The notes beneath the pieces are model-generated. The model had not been told where the DNA came from. It did not search any database and was given only the letters and a program-made list of their open reading frames with translations. Source: Escherichia phage vB-Eco-KMB23. From it: a DNA stretch of 64,000 bases. The position numbers and the translations under genes are program-made. Positions 9,117 through 62,256 of this stretch are shown one piece after another. Every line of letters begins with the position of its first letter. Position 1 is the stretch's first letter. The stretch is taken from sequence record OR525702.1; one strand, given 5' to 3'.

Positions 9117-9117
<1 letters not shown>

Positions 9118-9842
9118 TATAGTACCTTTAGTGTATTTTTAATTTTAGAAAAAAGTTCTTCAAGAGAACCATCGTTTGTAATTACTAAATCACCATCACG
9201 AATTGGCAATCCAGCTTCTGTAATATGTGTATCATTGGATTTTTGACCAGGACGAACTACATGAATTACTGTAGCACCCATCGCCCTAGCCGCATCCATT
9301 TCATGATCTTGACGAGTATCAGGAACGATATAATAATCATAACCTGAGTTAAATTTATCAAGATAATCTAAAGCAAATAATTTTACCCAATACATGCGGT
9401 CGAAGTTATTAACAATCAAATCCGTACCTAGGGCTTGCATCAGACGACGGACTGACCATTGATCTTCAATATTATTTATAACGTCAGCAATCTTATTAAA
9501 TGCTACGAAAGTAACTGATTCTTTTCCTTCGTCATCAAAAACAAACACACCTTTAATTGGGCTTTTACTATTAAGATAGCAAAATGCTTGTTCCATAATC
9601 GTGATTACTTCTAATTTAGTCAGATTTAAATTAGTCTCACGATCATAGTCAATTCCTTCAAACTCTTTACGAGTTAAGCAAGGATAGTCAGTGTTTGCTG
9701 CAAATACTCCCCATGCATAAGCCAATGCATCCTTAATAGGACCAGCAAGTTGGTATTTAACTGCAGAATAATTATTCATGATAAAATCTGCAGTAGTATC
9801 TTTTCCGCTACGCTTTACACCACTTAAAAAGATTAGTTTCAT
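9117..9842 (-). CDS. 1: gp1 deoxynucleoside monophosphate kinase
   Basis: 241 aa; P-loop GVKRSGKDT near N-terminus; T4 order 57A-1-3-2-4. Confidence 0.9.
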
Positions 9843-9891: not shown

Positions 9892-10422
9892 TTAAACTTC
9901 TGCTATAATTTTTCCATCTTTTTCTACTTGAAAATAGGTGTAAGGAATCGTTGCAGTACATACTAAAGCCGGGTCTGAATCTTCCGTATAGCTAAATTCT
10001 ACTTCAGATAGGTCAGAAACCCAAGGCTTATAAAAATTTATTGACATCACGATTTCAGTTTTGCTATTATCTAAGATGTAAAGCGTAATGTACTCAGGAC
10101 CTGTTTTTTGGGCAGTATTTTCACCTGTAAGATAGTTGCTAGTTCCTAGCATCCATTCATACATTCCTATCCACGACTTAAGTTCTTCATCAACTATAAA
10201 TCTCACAATGAGTGGATCATACTCGAATGTAACACCTGGACGTTGTGCTCGGCCCAGTCCAAACGGCCCAGTCACGGTATCAGTAACAGGTATTCTAATT
10301 CCTGGAATAGGAACTGACTGAGCATTTAAAGTAAAAGCAGATGTAGTATTACTATGTGGTATTGATACTACAAAGTTAGTTGTATTTGCTTGGTTAAAAA
10401 TTTGTTGTAGAGCTTGCGACAT
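9892..10422 (-). CDS. 3: gp3 tail tube terminator/sheath stabiliser
   Basis: Start placed at internal Met (MSQALQQIF...) with SD GAGGAA; ORF-track N-terminal extension runs into a tandem repeat and is rejected. Confidence 0.85.
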   Translation of the reverse strand: MSQALQQIFNQANTTNFVVSIPHSNTTSAFTLNAQSVPIPGIRIPVTDTVTGPFGLGRAQRPGVTFEYDPLIVRFIVDEELKSWIGMYEWMLGTSNYLTGENTAQKTGPEYITLYILDNSKTEIVMSINFYKPWVSDLSEVEFSYTEDSDPALVCTATIPYTYFQVEKDGKIIAEV

Positions 10423-10473
10423 ATATTCCTCATAATGCTTTATAACTGTTGGTGGTATAATGGGTCTAAGTCC

Positions 10474-10510
10474 CTTCCATTCAATTCCATTCAATTCCAT
10501 TCAATTCCAT
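10474..10510. repeat. 10-bp tandem repeat (tcaattccat x3 plus partial copy) in gene 2-gene 3 intergenic region
   Basis: Direct reading: cttccat tcaattccat tcaattccat tcaattccat tta. Confidence 0.9.
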
Positions 10511-10548
10511 TTAGAACAAACAACAGAAAAGAATGGAAGATAATAGAA

Positions 10549-11373
10549 TTAGATATTTGACCAGACTTTGTTTGCAGAGAAACGTTTTCCTTTTGAAACG
10601 AACTGCTGAAGTGGCATCAACACAACGTTCGCCCAGTCTTTCGGGGCGATTTCAACAAGGCTACCCATAATATTACCAGGTATATATGCCTTAATCATTT
10701 GGTCTGCACCCCTAAATCCTTTCACTTGACTCCAATCAATTTTTAATTTCGTTTTATTAGTAATAGTAGGTGTATTTGAATATTGCTTTAAAAGCTCTTC
10801 TAGAAATTGCTGACGAGCTTTAGGTGGAATATAGTGCAAGTTTAATCCGTACATTAAATTATGCTTACCTAAACCAAGGTAAATTATCAAAGGAAATTTA
10901 TCCCAGTAAGGAAGAGTTTCCTTGTGTTTAGCATCATAAGCAAAAGCATATATTCGTCCCGGCTGCGGGCGAACAACTTTATGTCCTTTTACTTGCTTAA
11001 TAGTTTCAGCAAACCACTTTCTGGTTTTATTATTAATTGCTGCACCTTCATTACGAATTTTATCACGCAATGTTTGTCTGAATGAATTTATCATAAGCAG
11101 TTGTCTTTCTTGCTTATTGAGTTTATTCATTGGTTTTGATTCAAGCTTTTGAATCTTTTCAGCCGTTTTAATTCCTGAAGCATATTTTGACATTGCTGAA
11201 GTAAACGTAGAGTATTTGATTCCTCTTTCTTCAGCAAATTGCTTTCCTGTCATTCCTTTTGCTTTGGCCTTTTTATATTCAAGACCTATCTGAATCCATT
11301 TCTTTTCGTTTAATGATTGCTTAACCTTTGGAACTTGGGGAGTGCTTTCATTAATTATTTGAAAAATAGCCAT
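10549..11373 (-). CDS. 2: gp2 DNA end-protector protein
   Basis: 274 aa, matches T4 gp2 length and order. Confidence 0.9.
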
Positions 11374-11825
11374 TATGCCCCCTTAAAGCCAAGAGCTCGT
11401 AATCCATCTTCTGTTAGAATTCTAAATTTTATTCCACGCTTTTCAGCTAAAGCTTGCGCTGCTTTCCATTTGTCGGTATTAACGGAATATGTATAAATTT
11501 CATTCATAAATCTTTTCTTCGCTGCAGTTGTTAGATGTGCTGGTTTAACTGGTGGTTGTGTTTCTTTTTTAGGTTTTATTTCAATAAAAAATTCTTGTCC
11601 AGAAGAATCTTTCATCCAAATATCCATGAAGTATCTACGTTTTTTCCCTTCTGCATTACAAAAATAAGGAATTACTGCTGTTTCACTACCCCATGCAATA
11701 ATTTCTGGATTTTTATCTAACCATTCAAAAAAGAATTTTTCCCAATTTGATCTATACGTAATTTTTTTAGGGTCACCTCTATACTTTGATATATTTTTAG
11801 GAACCCATTTTCCAGAATATGCCAT
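11373..11825 (-). CDS. 4: gp4 head completion protein
   Basis: 150 aa; T4 gp4-like; stop/start overlap with gene 2. Confidence 0.9.
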
Positions 11826-11850: not shown

Positions 11851-11858
11851 ATATTTAT
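11851..11858 (-). promoter_or_regulatory. late promoter TATAAATA (minus) for gene 4
   Basis: Plus tatttata; divergent from gene 53 promoter. Confidence 0.6.
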
Positions 11859-11872
11859 AAACAGGAGGGCCC

Positions 11873-12463
11873 ATGCTCTTTACATTTTTTGATCCGATTG
11901 AATATGCGGCCAAAACGGTGAATAAAAACGCGCCGACTATTCCTATGACAGATATTTTTAGAAACTATAAAGACTATTTTAAACGCGCTCTTGCGGGATA
12001 CCGCTTACGTACTTATTATATCAAAGGTTCACCACGCCCGGAAGAATTAGCAAATACTATATATGGAAATCCACAGTTGTATTGGGTTTTATTGATGTGT
12101 AATGATAATTATGACCCGTATTATGGATGGATTACTTCACAAGAAGCTGCTTATCAAGCATCTATACAAAAATACAAAAATGTGGGTGGAGACCAGATAG
12201 TATATCATGTGAATGAGAACGGTGAAAAATTTTATAATTTAATATCATACGATGATAATCCATATGTTTGGTATGACAAAGGTGATAAAGCTAGAAAATA
12301 TCCTCAATATGAAGGAGCACTTGCTGCGGTCGATACGTATGAAGCTGCTGTTCTTGAAAATGAAAAACTTCGTCAAATAAAAATAATAGCAAAATCCGAC
12401 ATTAATTCATTTATGAACGACCTTATACGTATAATGGAGAAATCTTATGGAAATGATAAGTAA
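11873..12463 (+). CDS. 53: gp53 baseplate wedge protein
   Basis: 196 aa, T4 order 4/53/5. Confidence 0.9.
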   Translation: MLFTFFDPIEYAAKTVNKNAPTIPMTDIFRNYKDYFKRALAGYRLRTYYIKGSPRPEELANTIYGNPQLYWVLLMCNDNYDPYYGWITSQEAAYQASIQKYKNVGGDQIVYHVNENGEKFYNLISYDDNPYVWYDKGDKARKYPQYEGALAAVDTYEAAVLENEKLRQIKIIAKSDINSFMNDLIRIMEKSYGNDK

Positions 12464-14174
12464 TAACCTTAATTGGTTTGTTGGTGTTGTTGAAGATAGA
12501 ATGGACCCATTAAAATTAGGTCGTGTTCGTGTTCGTGTGGTTGGTTTGCATCCACCCCAAAGAGCACAAGGTGATGTAATGGGTATTCCAACTGAAAAAT
12601 TACCATGGATGTCAGTTATTCAACCTATAACTTCTGCAGCGATGTCAGGAATTGGAGGTTCTGTTACAGGGCCAGTAGAAGGAACTAGAGTTTATGGTCA
12701 TTTTTTAGACAAATGGAAAACTAACGGAATTGTCCTTGGCACATATGGTGGAATAGTTCGCGAAAAACCGAATAGACTTGAAGGATTTTCTGACCCAACT
12801 GGGCAGTATCCTAGACGTTTAGGAAATGATACGAACGTATTAAACCAAGGCGGAGAAGTAGGATATGATTCGTCTTCTAACATTATCCAAGATAGTAACT
12901 TAGACACCGCAATAAATCCCGATGATAGACCACTATCAGAGATTCCAACCGATGATAATCCAAATATGTCAATGGCTGAAATGCTTCGCCGTGATGAAGG
13001 ATTAAGACTAAAAGTTTATTGGGATACAGAAGGATATCCGACAATTGGTATTGGTCATCTTATCATGAAGCAGCCAGTTCGTGATATGACCCAAATTAAT
13101 AAAGTTTTATCAAAACAAGTTGGTCGTGAAATTACCGGAAATCCAGGTTCTATTACAATGGAAGAAGCGGTAACTTTATTTGAACGCGATTTGGCTGATA
13201 TGCAACGTGACATTAAATCACATTCTAAAGTAGGACCAGTCTGGCAAGCTGTAAACCGTTCTCGTCAAATGGCATTAGAAAATATGGCATTTCAGATGGG
13301 CGTTGGCGGTGTAGCTAAATTTAACACAATGTTAACTGCTATGTTAGCCGGAGATTGGGAAAAGGCATATAAAGCTGGTCGTGATTCATTGTGGTATCAA
13401 CAAACAAAAGGCCGTGCATCCCGTGTTACCATGATTATTCTTACAGGGAATTTGGAATCATATGGTGTTGAAGTGAAAACCCCAGCTAGGTCTCTATCAG
13501 CAATGGCTGCTACTGTAGCTAAATCTTCTGACCCTGCTGATCCTCCTATTCCAAATGACTCGAGAATTTTATTCAAAGAACCAGTTTCTTCATATAAAGG
13601 TGAATATCCTTATGTGCATACAATGGAAACTGAAAGTGGACATATTCAGGAATTTGATGATACCCCTGGGCAAGAACGATACAGATTAGTTCATCCAACT
13701 GGAACTTATGAAGAAGTATCACCGTCAGGAAGAAGAACAAGAAAAACTGTTGATAATTTGTATGATATAACCAACGCTGATGGTAATTTTTTGGTAGCCG
13801 GTGATAAAAAGACTAACGTCGGTGGTTCAGAAATTTATTACAACATGGATAATCGTCTTCACCAAATAGATGGAAGCAATACAATATTTGTACGTGGCGA
13901 TGAAACTAAGACGGTTGAAGGTAATGGAACTATCCTAGTCAAAGGTAATGTTACTATTGTAGTTGAAGGCAATGCTGACATTACAGTTAAAGGAGATGCT
14001 ACCACTTTAGTTGAAGGTAATCAAACTAATACAGTAAATGGAAATCTTTCTTGGAAAGTTGCTGGGACAGTTGATTGGGACGTTGGCGGTGATTGGACAG
14101 AAAAAATGGCATCTATGAGTTCTATTTCATCTGGTCAATACACAATTGATGGATCGAGGATTGACATTGGCTAA
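12447..14174 (+). CDS. 5: gp5 baseplate hub/cell-puncturing protein with lysozyme domain
   Basis: 575 aa; N-terminal OB domain, central T4-lysozyme-like segment (EGLRLKVYWDTEGYPTIGIGHL), C-terminal beta-helix repeats (VEGN...VKGD). Confidence 0.95.
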   Translation: MEMISNNLNWFVGVVEDRMDPLKLGRVRVRVVGLHPPQRAQGDVMGIPTEKLPWMSVIQPITSAAMSGIGGSVTGPVEGTRVYGHFLDKWKTNGIVLGTYGGIVREKPNRLEGFSDPTGQYPRRLGNDTNVLNQGGEVGYDSSSNIIQDSNLDTAINPDDRPLSEIPTDDNPNMSMAEMLRRDEGLRLKVYWDTEGYPTIGIGHLIMKQPVRDMTQINKVLSKQVGREITGNPGSITMEEAVTLFERDLADMQRDIKSHSKVGPVWQAVNRSRQMALENMAFQMGVGGVAKFNTMLTAMLAGDWEKAYKAGRDSLWYQQTKGRASRVTMIILTGNLESYGVEVKTPARSLSAMAATVAKSSDPADPPIPNDSRILFKEPVSSYKGEYPYVHTMETESGHIQEFDDTPGQERYRLVHPTGTYEEVSPSGRRTRKTVDNLYDITNADGNFLVAGDKKTNVGGSEIYYNMDNRLHQIDGSNTIFVRGDETKTVEGNGTILVKGNVTIVVEGNADITVKGDATTLVEGNQTNTVNGNLSWKVAGTVDWDVGGDWTEKMASMSSISSGQYTIDGSRIDIG

Positions 14175-32461: not shown

Positions 32462-34568
32462 ATGACTTTATTATCTCCGGGCATTGAGCTCAAAGAAACT
32501 ACGGTTCAAAGCACCGTGGTTAATAACTCTACTGGTACAGCAGCTTTGGCCGGTAAATTCCAGTGGGGTCCTGCTTTTCAAATTAAACAGGTTACAAATG
32601 AAGTAGATTTAGTTAATACTTTTGGTCAACCTACAGCTGAAACTGCTGACTATTTTATGTCTGCAATGAATTTCTTACAATACGGAAATGATTTGCGAGT
32701 TGTGCGTGCTGTCGATAGAGATACCGCTAAAAACTCATCTCCGATTGCCGGTAATATTGAATACACTATTTCTACCCCAGGTAGTAACTACGCGGTTGGA
32801 GATAAAATCACTGTTAAGTATGTTTCAGAAGATGTTGAAACAGAAGGTAAAATTACTGAAGTAGATGCTGATGGAAAAATTAAGAAAATTAATATTCCTA
32901 CCGCAAAAATTATCGCTAAAGCGAAAGAAGTAGGCGAATATCCAGCATTAGGTTCTAACTGGACTGCGGAAATTTCTTCGTCTTCCTCTGGTTTAGCTGC
33001 AGTAATAACTCTTGGGAAAATTATTACTGATTCTGGTATTTTATTAGCTGAAATTGAAAATGCCGAAGCTGCTATGACAGCTGTTGACTTTCAGGCAAAT
33101 CTCGAAAAATATGGAATTCCAGGAGTAGTAGCTCTTTATCCAGGCGAGTTGGGCGATAAAATCGAAATTGAAATCGTATCTAAAGCTGACTACGCAAAAG
33201 GTGCTTCTGCATTACTCCCAATTTATCCAGGTGGCGGAACACGCGCATCTACTGCCAAAGCAGTGTTTGGATATGGACCACAAACTGATTCACAATACGC
33301 TATTATAGTTCGTCGCAATGATGCTATTGTTCAAAGCGTTGTTCTTTCAACAAAGCGTGGTGAAAAAGATATTTACGATAGTAACATCTATATTGATGAC
33401 TTTTTCGCAAAAGGTGGTTCAGAATATATTTTCGCAACTGCACAAAACTGGCCAGAAGGCTTCTCTGGAATTTTAACTCTGTCTGGTGGATTATCATCAA
33501 ATGCTGAAGTAACAGCAGGAGATTTGATGGAAGCTTGGGACTTCTTTGCTGACCGTGAATCTGTTGATGTTCAGTTGTTTATTGCGGGTTCTTGCGCCGG
33601 CGAATCTTTAGAAACAGCATCTACTGTCCAAAAACACGTCGTTTCAATTGGGGATGCTCGCCAAGATTGCTTAGTACTGTGCTCACCACCGCGTGAAACT
33701 GTAGTTGGAATTCCTGTAACTCGTGCTGTTGATAACTTAGTCAATTGGAGAACTGCAGAAACACGTCGTTTCAATTGGGGATGCTCGCCAAGATTGCTTA
33801 GTACTGTGCTCACCACCGCGTGAAACTGTAGTTGGAATTCCTGTAACTCGTGCTGTTGATAACTTAGTCAATTGGAGAACTGCAGCAGGTTCATACACTG
33901 ATAATAACTTTAATATCAGTTCAACCTACGCAGCAATTGATGGTAACTACAAGTATCAGTATGACAAATATAATGATGTGAATCGTTGGGTTCCATTAGC
34001 AGCTGATATTGCTGGTTTATGCGCGAGAACAGATAACGTTTCTCAGACTTGGATGTCTCCAGCTGGTTATAATCGCGGCCAAATTTTGAACGTTATTAAA
34101 CTTGCTATTGAAACTCGCCAGGCGCAGCGCGATCGTTTATACCAAGAAGCTATCAACCCAGTAACTGGCACAGGTGGTGATGGTTACGTATTGTATGGTG
34201 ATAAAACAGCTACTTCTGTTCCTTCTCCATTTGATCGTATTAACGTTCGTCGTCTGTTTAATATGTTGAAAACGAATATCGGACGTAGTTCAAAATATCG
34301 TTTGTTCGAATTAAACAACGCGTTTACTCGTTCATCGTTCCGCACAGAAACTTCCCAGTACTTGCAGGGAATTAAAGCTCTCGGTGGAATTTATGAATAT
34401 CGTGTAGTTTGCGATACAACAAATAACACTCCGTCAGTAATTGATAGAAATGAGTTTGTTGCAACATTCTACATCCAACCGGCTAGAAGCATTAACTACA
34501 TTACCTTAAACTTCGTAGCAACTGCTACTGGTGCAGATTTCGATGAGTTAACTGGTCTTGCAGGTTAA
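32462..34568 (+). pseudogene. 18: tail sheath gene 18 interrupted by 127-bp tandem duplication (frameshift; ORFs 32462..33823 and 33978..34568)
   Basis: Two ORFs in different frames (453 aa + 196 aa); removing one 127-bp copy gives a single 659-codon frame. Confidence 0.85.
33632..33885 (+). repeat. perfect 127-bp direct tandem duplication (2 copies) inside gene 18
   Basis: 33632..33758 identical to 33759..33885 (aaacacgtcgtttcaattggggatgctcg...gtcaattggagaactgcag). Confidence 0.95.
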
Positions 34569-43558: not shown

Positions 43559-44977
43559 TTATGGATAGGTATAGATGATACCAGTTTCTAAAGCAGTTTT
43601 ATGAATGATGTATCCATTACGTGATTCTTGAACATCAACTTCTGGATAGTCTTTCATCATCTTCTGAAGGGTGTAACGATGCAGGTAGTATTTACTATCT
43701 GGATCTTCAGTTTTCCAATCTTTACCTTCTTCGGTCATTTTTTGGATTTCATCCATAACCCACCAACCGCACCAGATATAAGCCGAAGTACGATGTGGAA
43801 GAGGATGAACATAAGGCAATTCACCTTCTGGTTCTGGAGCAACTTTATCAGTTACCTGAACTTGACCTTCTGCTGTGATAGTTTTGCTATCATAATCAGT
43901 AGCAGTAACAGTTGCAGTAACTTCAATAGTTTGACTTCCAATAGATGATGTATCAACAGTGTATACATTAGTTGACCCTTCTACTGGAGAAGAATCTTTC
44001 TTCCATGAATATTCGATTTGTGCTTCTTCTGGAGCATCCGTAACATTAGCAGTAAATGTAGCCGAAGCATCTTGCTGAACGTTAATAGAAGGAGGAGTCA
44101 ATGTAACCTGTGGATTCATTGTCTTCTTATTAACTGTTAATGATACTTCATTAGAAGTAACTGTTTTTGCGTCATAATCTGTTGCTGTTACTTGCGCTAC
44201 GCATTTAATTCTTTTTACTCCACTTGTAGTTGGAGTATAGCTAAATGTAGCAGAAGTCGCTTCACCAATTTGAGAATCATCTACATACCACTGATACGTA
44301 GCAGATGCCCCATCAGGTTGAGAAGCTAAGGCAGCGGTAAATTCAACGGCTGTTCCAATCACTCCAGCTGGAGGACTATCAGGAGTTACTGCCAAGGTAG
44401 TCGTCTGCGTCTTTTTATTAACAGTCAATGATACTTCATTAGAAGTAACGCTTAGTGCATCATAATCTGCCGCAGTTACTTGAGCTACACACTTGATTTT
44501 TTTAACTCCGCTTGTGTCAGGAGTGTAATTGAATGTAGCGTCAGTTGCTTCGTCTACAGGAGAACCGTCAACGTGCCATTGATACGTAGCGTTTGCACCT
44601 GATGGCTGTGAAGCTAAGGCAGCGGTAAATTGAACGGCTGTTCCGATTACTCCTTCCGGAGGACTAGCAGGAGTTACGGCTAATGTAGTTGTCTGTGTCT
44701 TATTTTGAACCGTGATAGTTGTCGTAGTTTCTGCTGTTTCAGGTTCAGATTCTGCAACTTGATTGGTTGCAACTACTTTAATAGTCTTTTGACCGGCAGG
44801 TCCTTTTAGTACATAACTAAAAGTTGCTGACGTTTCTTCCTGTGGAGCGTCGTCTACAGTCCAAGCATATGTAATAGGTCCATCTCCAGTTTGACCACTG
44901 GGTGTAGCAGTAAACTGCTGAGTCTGATCTATAACTCCAGTAGGTGTTTTAGGAGTTATATCAACTGTAAAAGCCAT
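43559..44977 (-). CDS. hoc: Hoc highly immunogenic outer capsid protein, four Ig-like domains
   Basis: 472 aa; the ORF contains two adjacent ~96-aa Ig-like repeats (TTTLAVTP...LTVNKKT) and is ~96 aa longer than the T4 Hoc length I recall (376 aa). Confidence 0.9.
   Translation of the reverse strand: MAFTVDITPKTPTGVIDQTQQFTATPSGQTGDGPITYAWTVDDAPQEETSATFSYVLKGPAGQKTIKVVATNQVAESEPETAETTTTITVQNKTQTTTLAVTPASPPEGVIGTAVQFTAALASQPSGANATYQWHVDGSPVDEATDATFNYTPDTSGVKKIKCVAQVTAADYDALSVTSNEVSLTVNKKTQTTTLAVTPDSPPAGVIGTAVEFTAALASQPDGASATYQWYVDDSQIGEATSATFSYTPTTSGVKRIKCVAQVTATDYDAKTVTSNEVSLTVNKKTMNPQVTLTPPSINVQQDASATFTANVTDAPEEAQIEYSWKKDSSPVEGSTNVYTVDTSSIGSQTIEVTATVTATDYDSKTITAEGQVQVTDKVAPEPEGELPYVHPLPHRTSAYIWCGWWVMDEIQKMTEEGKDWKTEDPDSKYYLHRYTLQKMMKDYPEVDVQESRNGYIIHKTALETGIIYTYP
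44117..44692 (-). repeat. tandem internal duplication (2 x 288 bp) encoding Ig-like domain of Hoc
   Basis: Codons 96-191 and 192-287 of hoc are ~80% identical repeats. Confidence 0.8.
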
Positions 44978-48374: not shown

Positions 48375-48440
48375 ATTGTTCTCTATTCAATTGTTATTGG
48401 ATGGACTTAGATTCATTATACCACGTTTATACGTGAAGCA

Positions 48441-61990: not shown

Positions 61991-62256
61991 TGTTCATCCT
62001 TTAGAGTTTGGTTTACAGCTCTATTATAAATCAATTCATCATTAAGCTCAGTCAAAGACCTATGGTACGTGGTTCTAACTTTATTTCCTTGCATCCAATG
62101 CTTGACGTAAATGAAACCTTGCTCTACACATTTTTTAAAAATTCGTTCGTCTTTTTGAGCTCGGAATTCTGGATTGCATCTAAAAAATTGATTTACGTGA
62201 CCGTAATCACGTGTAGTATTACCTTCATTTTCATAAATAGTGTGAACAACAAACAT
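61987..62256 (-). CDS. hypothetical protein (30.1-like)
   Basis: 89 aa. Confidence 0.65.
   Translation of the reverse strand: MFVVHTIYENEGNTTRDYGHVNQFFRCNPEFRAQKDERIFKKCVEQGFIYVKHWMQGNKVRTTYHRSLTELNDELIYNRAVNQTLKDEQ

Follow-up and report, generated by a model that had tools for sequence, protein, structure and literature searches.

When a perfect short tandem repeat lies directly upstream of a structural gene, the question arises whether its copy number controls that gene or is the trace of a duplication of no particular consequence. The genome of Escherichia phage vB-Eco-KMB23 (sequence record OR525702.1) poses this question in the spacer between genes 2 and 3. The original prediction favored control: a 10-bp repeat whose changes in copy number would add or remove upstream ATGs, or alter promoter spacing, and so place an otherwise conserved tail gene under phase-variable control. 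Here we analyze a 64,000-nucleotide stretch of this genome, referred to below as the window, and compare the spacer with its counterparts in other phages. The data are best described by a more modest picture, which we hold to be probable: an ordinary and near-neutral slippage allele, in which a conserved hairpin repeat has gained two units while the native gp3 start is kept and nothing is switched.

Organization of the locus

The source of the window is a T4-like phage (Tequatrovirus) whose first 25 kb are at most 97% identical to sequenced phages, teqdroes being one example. Genes 4 (11373-11825), 2 (10549-11373), 3 (9892-10422) and 1 (9117-9842) all lie on the minus strand. They were identified using the T4 annotation together with the open reading frames for genes 1, 2 and 4, and with identity to PDB chains for gene 3. 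Gene 2, the cistron upstream of gene 3, encodes the DNA end protector gp2. Gene 3 starts at the ATG at 10422 and encodes gp3, the 176-residue tail tube terminator or tail completion protein. Between the gene 2 stop at 10549 and this ATG there are 126 bp (10423-10548, minus strand), which agrees with the gap originally reported. Alignment and blastn show that the same intercistronic spacer is 106 bp long in sequenced Tequatroviruses (105 bp in T6).

The spacer contains a tandem repeat far above chance expectation

Tandem Repeats Finder returned a perfect (AATGGAATTG)x3.7 tandem repeat at 10475-10511 on the minus strand, the coding strand of gene 3, with a period of 10, 100% matches and a score of 74. 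A repeat search found three 17-nt copies within the array, in register and spaced 10 nt apart. Read on the minus strand, the array is TTCTA-(AATGGAATTG)x3-AATGGAA-GGGA. The coordinates first assigned to it, 10474-10510, pointed to the right locus but are shifted by one base. Relative to the true gene 3 ATG the array lies 53-89 nt upstream, outside the real coding sequence.

The 27 matched bases of this period-10 array make it the longest perfect periodic run in the 64-kb window, where the maximum elsewhere is 15. In 100 dinucleotide-preserving shuffles of the window the perfect periodic run averaged 10.6 and never exceeded 15, compared with 27 in the real sequence. The 3.7-copy array is far above chance expectation, and the stretch at 10475-10511 is a tandem repeat in the full sense of the term, with at least two head-to-tail copies at high identity and beyond chance. 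Tandem Repeats Finder, the repeat search and the shuffles thus confirm the repeat that had been predicted between genes 2 and 3.

Relatives carry two units fewer

Alignment of the spacer with those of T4 (AF158101), Yersinia phage fPS-2 and phage FJ1 revealed a single clean 20-nt gap. All three phages have AATGGAATTG-AATGGAA, or 1.7 copies, and the array in the window exceeds this by two units (20 bp). Outside the gap the T4 spacer is identical to the window at every position and that of FJ1 carries one substitution, while the divergence of the fPS-2 spacer is confined to the first ~20 nt after the stop of an upstream homing-endonuclease ORF. Homing-endonuclease ORFs with a weak HNH signature are found in fPS-2 (L002 730-1389), D5505, vB_EcoM_112, KMB39, QL01 (L007 1-318) and L044. 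Each insertion falls precisely at the junction of the gene 2 stop with the conserved TAAT(T)CTATT that opens the spacer, and the spacer is left intact.

A blastn search of 50,697 phage records with the 126-bp spacer as query gave the same result on a larger scale: each of the 504 Tequatrovirus records has 1.7 copies in a spacer of 106 bp (105 bp in T6). All 504 matches fall in the 80-90% identity band, and their maximum of 84.1% is exactly 106/126, that is, the gap itself. A 43-nt probe that seeds only on at least 2.7 copies had no match in the 50,697 phage records, and exact scans for at least 2.7 copies returned none in IMG/VR, the JGI metagenomes or the GTDB genomes. As judged from these comparisons, the repeat is invariant at 1.7 copies throughout the genus, and the two extra units are private to this genome. 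An array this long occurs in 0 of 504 relatives, in keeping with the initial remark that such a repeat is unusual in T4-like genomes.

This distribution bears directly on the proposal that the array is a contingency locus, in which copy number would switch the gp3 translation start or the promoter spacing on and off. The comparison across genomes that had been suggested as a check on that proposal shows no copy-number polymorphism. Copy number does differ in one of ~500 genomes, but fixation at 1.7 copies in 504 of 504 relatives, over hosts and continents, is the opposite of what a hypervariable tract would display. A 10-mer repeated 3.7 times is also short for efficient slippage.

Other lineages carry repeats of their own in this spacer. 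The spacer of one IMG/VR contig (L048) contains a private (TCTTAATCT)x3 that its relatives L049 and L050 do not have, Acinetobacter phages (L014/L051) carry 19-nt tandem repeats, and L040 has GGGGATA repeats. On this sequence evidence, small duplications seem to have arisen repeatedly in the gene 2-gene 3 spacer and, as these tandem repeats are private to other lineages, are evidently tolerated there.

The expansion is likely to be a real allele

An allele found nowhere else in the collections searched might have arisen on the way to the record, as an error of sequencing or assembly or as a minor variant called into the consensus of a phage that truly has 1.7 copies. The record lends this explanation some support. 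A perfect 127-bp x2 tandem duplication at 33632-33885 breaks the essential tail-sheath gene 18 and splits its reading frame into 32462-33823 (453 aa) and 33978-34568 (196 aa). It is absent from all relatives (774 vs 901 bp), and at least one assembly error has therefore been left in the record. This duplication is most likely the untrimmed end overlap of a circular contig, that is, an assembly artefact; 127 is a common maximal k-mer, which would be consistent with an origin in the assembler.

Such an overlap has a different and well-known cause, however, and says little about small indels. The 37-bp array is far shorter than typical reads and than the 127-mer, so de Bruijn assemblers would not normally be expected to invent units within it. 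Slippage in vivo would moreover produce units that are exact and in register, as the extra ones are. We therefore regard an artefact as unlikely, and that the expansion is a real allele as likely. The repeat and the gene 18 duplication together nonetheless flag record OR525702.1 as needing validation at the level of the reads.

Two further periodic regions were noted elsewhere in the window. Tandem Repeats Finder reported a 288-bp unit present x2.0 at 78% identity at 44121-44701, a possible duplication of a domain within a coding region. A 24/48-nt periodicity at 13914-14045, in the 3' part of gene 5 (ORF 12447-14174), corresponds to the VxGxxxxx segment of the gp5 beta-helix and is expected.

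The extra units lengthen the gene 3 reading frame and presumably not the protein

Read from the ATG at 10422, gp3 is 100% identical to T4 gp3 (176 aa) and identical to the PDB chains 9mkb, 9mof and 9x3p, whose first residues are MSQALQQ. The ORF finder instead placed the start at the ATG at 10500, giving 202 residues rather than 176. The original prediction was correct that an ATG of the repeat accounts for this extension by 26 residues. Frame analysis of the ORF shows that the added codons (10423-10500, minus strand) are spurious and are opened by the 20-bp insertion.

The spacer contains four upstream ATGs, at 10510, 10500, 10490 and 10480. The expectation of one in-frame ATG for every ten codons' worth of repeat holds only in the sense of every third unit, because each ATG follows the last by 10 nt and so falls in the next of the three frames. 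The ATG at 10500 alone is both in frame with gp3 and open, reading MELNGIEWKGLRPIIPPTVIKHYEEY-MSQ..., and the other three reach a stop after 4-16 codons. In T4 only the last two upstream ATGs exist, and both are out of frame and terminate. It is thus the frame shift of +20 bp that puts the ATG at 10500 in the gp3 frame and causes ORF callers to over-extend gene 3. For annotation this is a trap: the extra 20 bp lead to a 202-aa call, and the real protein is the 176-aa T4 gp3.

Initiation at the upstream ATG was assessed from predicted energies and structure. The Shine-Dalgarno duplex is worth -3.3 kcal/mol at the ATG at 10500, compared with -6.3 kcal/mol at the native GAGGAA site, which was located from the sequence and the duplex energy at 10426-10431 on the minus strand, 3 nt 5' of the ATG at 10422. 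The ATG at 10500 is located inside a predicted stem. Around the true start of gene 3, the predicted accessibility is essentially unchanged (0.57 vs 0.61). In the virion, residues 2-15 of gp3 form an extended segment that contacts gp15 (PMC12929629), so that a prefix of 26 residues would fall in this interface.

Considering the weak Shine-Dalgarno sequence and the stem, the unaltered accessibility of the start and the gp15-bound N-terminus, we judge that the extension is not made. It is an artefact of ORF calling, and we infer that gp3 is translated from its native start. We found neither a functional upstream ribosome-binding site nor an extension that is conserved (0 of 504 relatives) or structurally tolerated, as an N-terminally extended isoform of gp3 would have. 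These results also bear on phase variation. Copy number does determine which upstream ATG is in frame, and at 3.7 copies the one at 10500 reads into gp3, as a switch would need; but with weak upstream ATGs, an unaffected native start region and a native N-terminus that is structurally engaged, little room is left for the effect on translation that had been envisaged.

Promoter motifs in and around the spacer

A motif scan did not find the late promoter consensus TATAAATA in the spacer; the nearest occurrence on the minus strand lies upstream of gene 4 (11852-11859) and is the likely source of a 4-2-3 late transcript that carries the spacer. A late-like TATAAAGC was rejected as a spacer late promoter on account of two mismatches, and the spacer has no sigma-70-like site on the sense strand.

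On the plus strand, beside the repeat, the stretch at 10433-10461 reads TAATGCTTTA, a 13-nt spacer and TGG-TATAAT, in which TGG forms an extended -10. The rule for middle promoters is a MotA box (a/t)(a/t)(a/t)TGCTTtA at 12 +/- 1 bp from TAtaaT, with an optional TGn (PMC2988021), and the motif satisfies this rule in full, in sequence and in spacing. It is thus a candidate MotA-dependent middle promoter, with a predicted start at about 10468-10469 (76000-76001 of AF158101, plus strand), 6-7 nt ahead of the repeat. A transcript from this start would run antisense into late genes 2 and 4. Table 1 of the same study (PMC2988021), which gives 58 mapped T4 middle promoters, does not include the motif; the number of antisense starts reported in a T4 dRNA-seq study is 22.

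The motif is conserved well beyond the genus. A (T/C)GCTT box followed after 12-14 nt by a perfect TATAAT is present in the spacers of Tequatro-, Mosig-, Gelderland-, Dhaka-, Karam-, Gapriver- and Lazarusvirus, and the same motif was seen in L005, L006, L007, L010, L011, L014 and many of L017-L072. The elements keep their spacing of 12-14 nt, with variation in the sequence that separates them and in how far they lie from the Shine-Dalgarno sequence and start of gene 3. The strict pattern GCTT-N13-16-TATAAT has only 4 occurrences in the 64-kb window, among them the known promoter P1, upstream of gene 1. Two other strict matches, at 48415-48439 and 62023-62047 on the minus strand, are probably middle promoters. 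MotA homologues are present in phages of the host groups that carry the motif-bearing genera, and their range is wider than the motif-bearing group; the presence of MotA, a necessary condition that is consistent but uninformative, was dropped as a discriminator. We treat the antisense middle promoter as a lead suggested by its sequence and not as a finding. Should it prove active, a classic model genome would gain an antisense transcript.

Two other candidates in this region were set aside. We found no basis for linking the spacer to oriE, which the review places by repEA and 12-nt iterons, with no known middle promoters near. A plus-strand ORF at 10533-10670 (45 aa) had no Pfam match and was not accepted as a gene.

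These motifs complete the evidence on phase variation. The spacer holds no sense promoter whose geometry the array could change, and the array is not situated between promoter elements: it lies downstream of the -10 element of the plus-strand motif, and its copy number cannot therefore alter the spacing of that promoter. Together with the lack of variation among relatives, the occurrence of at least 2.7 copies in none of the four collections and a position outside the coding sequence, this leads us to give phase-variable control hardly any credence.

The repeat forms one arm of a hairpin conserved across four genera

The array is not an isolated microsatellite. RNA folds, inverted repeats and compensatory changes delineate an imperfect inverted repeat at 10474-10540 on the minus strand, predicted to form a hairpin in the sense-strand RNA just past the gene 2 stop. 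Its 5' half consists of the degenerate 10-nt units TTCTATTATC, TTCCATTCTT and TTCTGTTGTT, and its 3' half of AATGGAA units. In the RNA, the 5' arm is UCUUCCAUUC..UUCUGUU and the 3' arm is built from the AAUGGAA repeat units. The T4 sense RNA is predicted to fold into a two-tier hairpin at this position, with the stems UCUUCCAUUC/GAAUGGAAGG and UUCUGUU/AAUGGAA. The longer array of the window gives the 3' arm an additional predicted partner, AAUUCUAUUA at the stop codon of gene 2, and lowers the predicted folding energy to -33 kcal/mol, compared with -25.5 kcal/mol for T4. The 3' end of the hairpin is ~40 nt upstream of the gene 3 Shine-Dalgarno sequence.

In the Tequatro-, Mosig-, Gelderland- and Karamvirus spacers tested, the predicted fold of the sense strand is significantly more stable than that of shuffled sequences, with z-scores of -2.3 to -5.1; the Mosigvirus variant L019 reaches only -1.9. 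The antisense strand mostly folds no better than shuffles (z about +0.5 to -2.2), because several of the hairpin pairs are G-U. The arms differ from genus to genus yet remain complementary, as in T4 (CUUCCAUUC/GAAUGGAAG), Mosigvirus (CUCUUCCGUU/AAUGGAAGAG), Gelderlandvirus (CUUCUGGUU/AACCGGAAG) and Karamvirus (UUCUUCCGGA/UCCGGAAGAA).

Covariation was scored on an alignment of the arms only, with six rows anchored on CTTC/GAAG; this alignment is built around the structure and so leans towards it. A MAFFT alignment of the whole spacer misaligned the Gelderland- and Karamvirus 5' arms and was not used for this purpose. In the arms-only alignment 90.9% of cells pair and both sides have changed in 5 of 11 pairs. 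The covariation score was reached by 0 of 500 shuffles, and it collapses when the registers are slid. Across the homologous spacers (L001, L005, L006, L010 and L023) the sequences show a predicted hairpin kept with compensatory changes in four genera. Dhaka- and Gaprivervirus have their hairpin at another position, where it encloses the antisense -10 element; this hairpin covaries as well.

A terminator scan found no intrinsic terminator in the spacer, where the hairpin is followed by GGGACUUAGACCC and not by a U tract. The more distant T4-like relatives Muldoon, Bragavirus and Lazarusvirus have a classical terminator at the same position. In the spacer of Proteus Bragavirus (L012), a direct repeat of ~95 bp flanks a terminator. 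Searching Rfam gave no meaningful match, the sole one being at chance level (21.9 bits vs a gathering score of 50, E = 0.63). Based on the predicted fold and its position, the hairpin may act in the processing or the stability of the 4-2-3 late mRNA.

A conserved structure that has grown in one genome raises the possibility that the expansion is adaptive, retuning the 4-2-3 hairpin or the leader of the antisense transcript (+7 to +43) and thereby altering gp2/gp3 stoichiometry or mRNA stability. The covariation of the hairpin would fit this, as would the pairing of the extra units at the gene 2 stop and the MotA-box-13 nt-TATAAT motif, which is found at fixed spacing on the opposite strand in seven genera. 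The allele is confined to one genome, however, and so carries no sign of selection; the antisense promoter is a candidate from sequence that is missing from the published list; and the displaced hairpin of Dhaka- and Gaprivervirus indicates that the module tolerates large changes. We consider an adaptive expansion very unlikely. A related and broader proposal, that the T-even spacer is a two-strand module of hairpin and MotA-dependent antisense promoter in which the expansion is a natural allele, lengthening both the hairpin arm and the leader of the antisense RNA, that would measurably change gp2/gp3 expression, also seems to us improbable. The by-products of the analysis are of more interest than the repeat itself: the repeat is part of a hairpin shared by four genera and abuts a middle-promoter-like motif shared by seven, and that motif is unlisted.

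Origin of the expansion

The reading that we prefer, a slippage allele without regulatory consequence, can be set out as a sequence of steps. The ancestral state would have been the short direct repeat AATGGAATTG AATGGAA, at 1.7 copies, which would owe its existence to the two-tier 3' arm that it forms in the conserved 4-2-3 mRNA hairpin. On this direct repeat two perfect 10-bp units were probably gained by slipped-strand mispairing or unequal recombination. The gain would have lengthened the hairpin arm and brought one weak upstream AUG into the gp3 frame, while gp3 would still be translated from its normal start.

The mechanism is suggested by the units themselves, which are exact copies of their neighbor and not complements of the 5' arm. 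For the same reason an origin templated by the quasipalindrome was rejected. Going from 1.7 to 3.7 copies requires two slippage steps or a single two-unit step, and we found no intermediate with 2.7 copies. The allele is probably near-neutral. One observation runs counter to neutrality: the predicted hairpin has gained ~7.5 kcal/mol in stability and has come to take in the gene 2 stop codon, with a potential effect on the processing of the mRNA.

Comparison with known systems

Four known systems provide points of reference. The plus-strand motif fits the consensus of the T4 MotA/AsiA middle promoters as well as P1 does (PMC2988021). It differs from them in pointing, as far as its sequence allows prediction, antisense into late genes 2 and 4, and in standing outside the list of 58. 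The hairpin resembles the T-even intercistronic hairpins, such as that at the gene 26-25 junction (PMC3014915), in being a stem-loop in a late polycistronic mRNA between structural genes. As in that type, compensatory changes preserve it in close T-even genera, and more distant T4-like phages have lost it or have something else in its place. The hairpin of gene 25, whose enhancement of initiation has been demonstrated, is situated between the Shine-Dalgarno sequence and the AUG (PMC3014915), whereas the predicted gene 2-gene 3 hairpin ends well before the Shine-Dalgarno sequence.

With the contingency loci of bacteria and some phages the array shares a short tandem repeat 5' of a structural gene and a copy number that sets the in-frame ATG. 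It differs from them in that 504 relatives lack polymorphism, the array is very short, the native start is intact, and the repeat lies outside any promoter spacer and outside the real coding sequence. The array also resembles the Streisinger-type duplications of T4. Slipped-strand mispairing or unequal recombination on direct repeats is the classical mechanism of duplication in this phage, known from the rII and lysozyme work. Exact head-to-tail units of a pre-existing direct repeat, an AT-rich genome of the T4 type and a change of frame are common to both. Here the duplication is in an intercistronic spacer, comprises two units with no 2.7-copy intermediate, and has a mechanism that is deduced from the sequence. 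The feature at 10475-10511 is a short tandem duplication and, as such, a new but ordinary allele.
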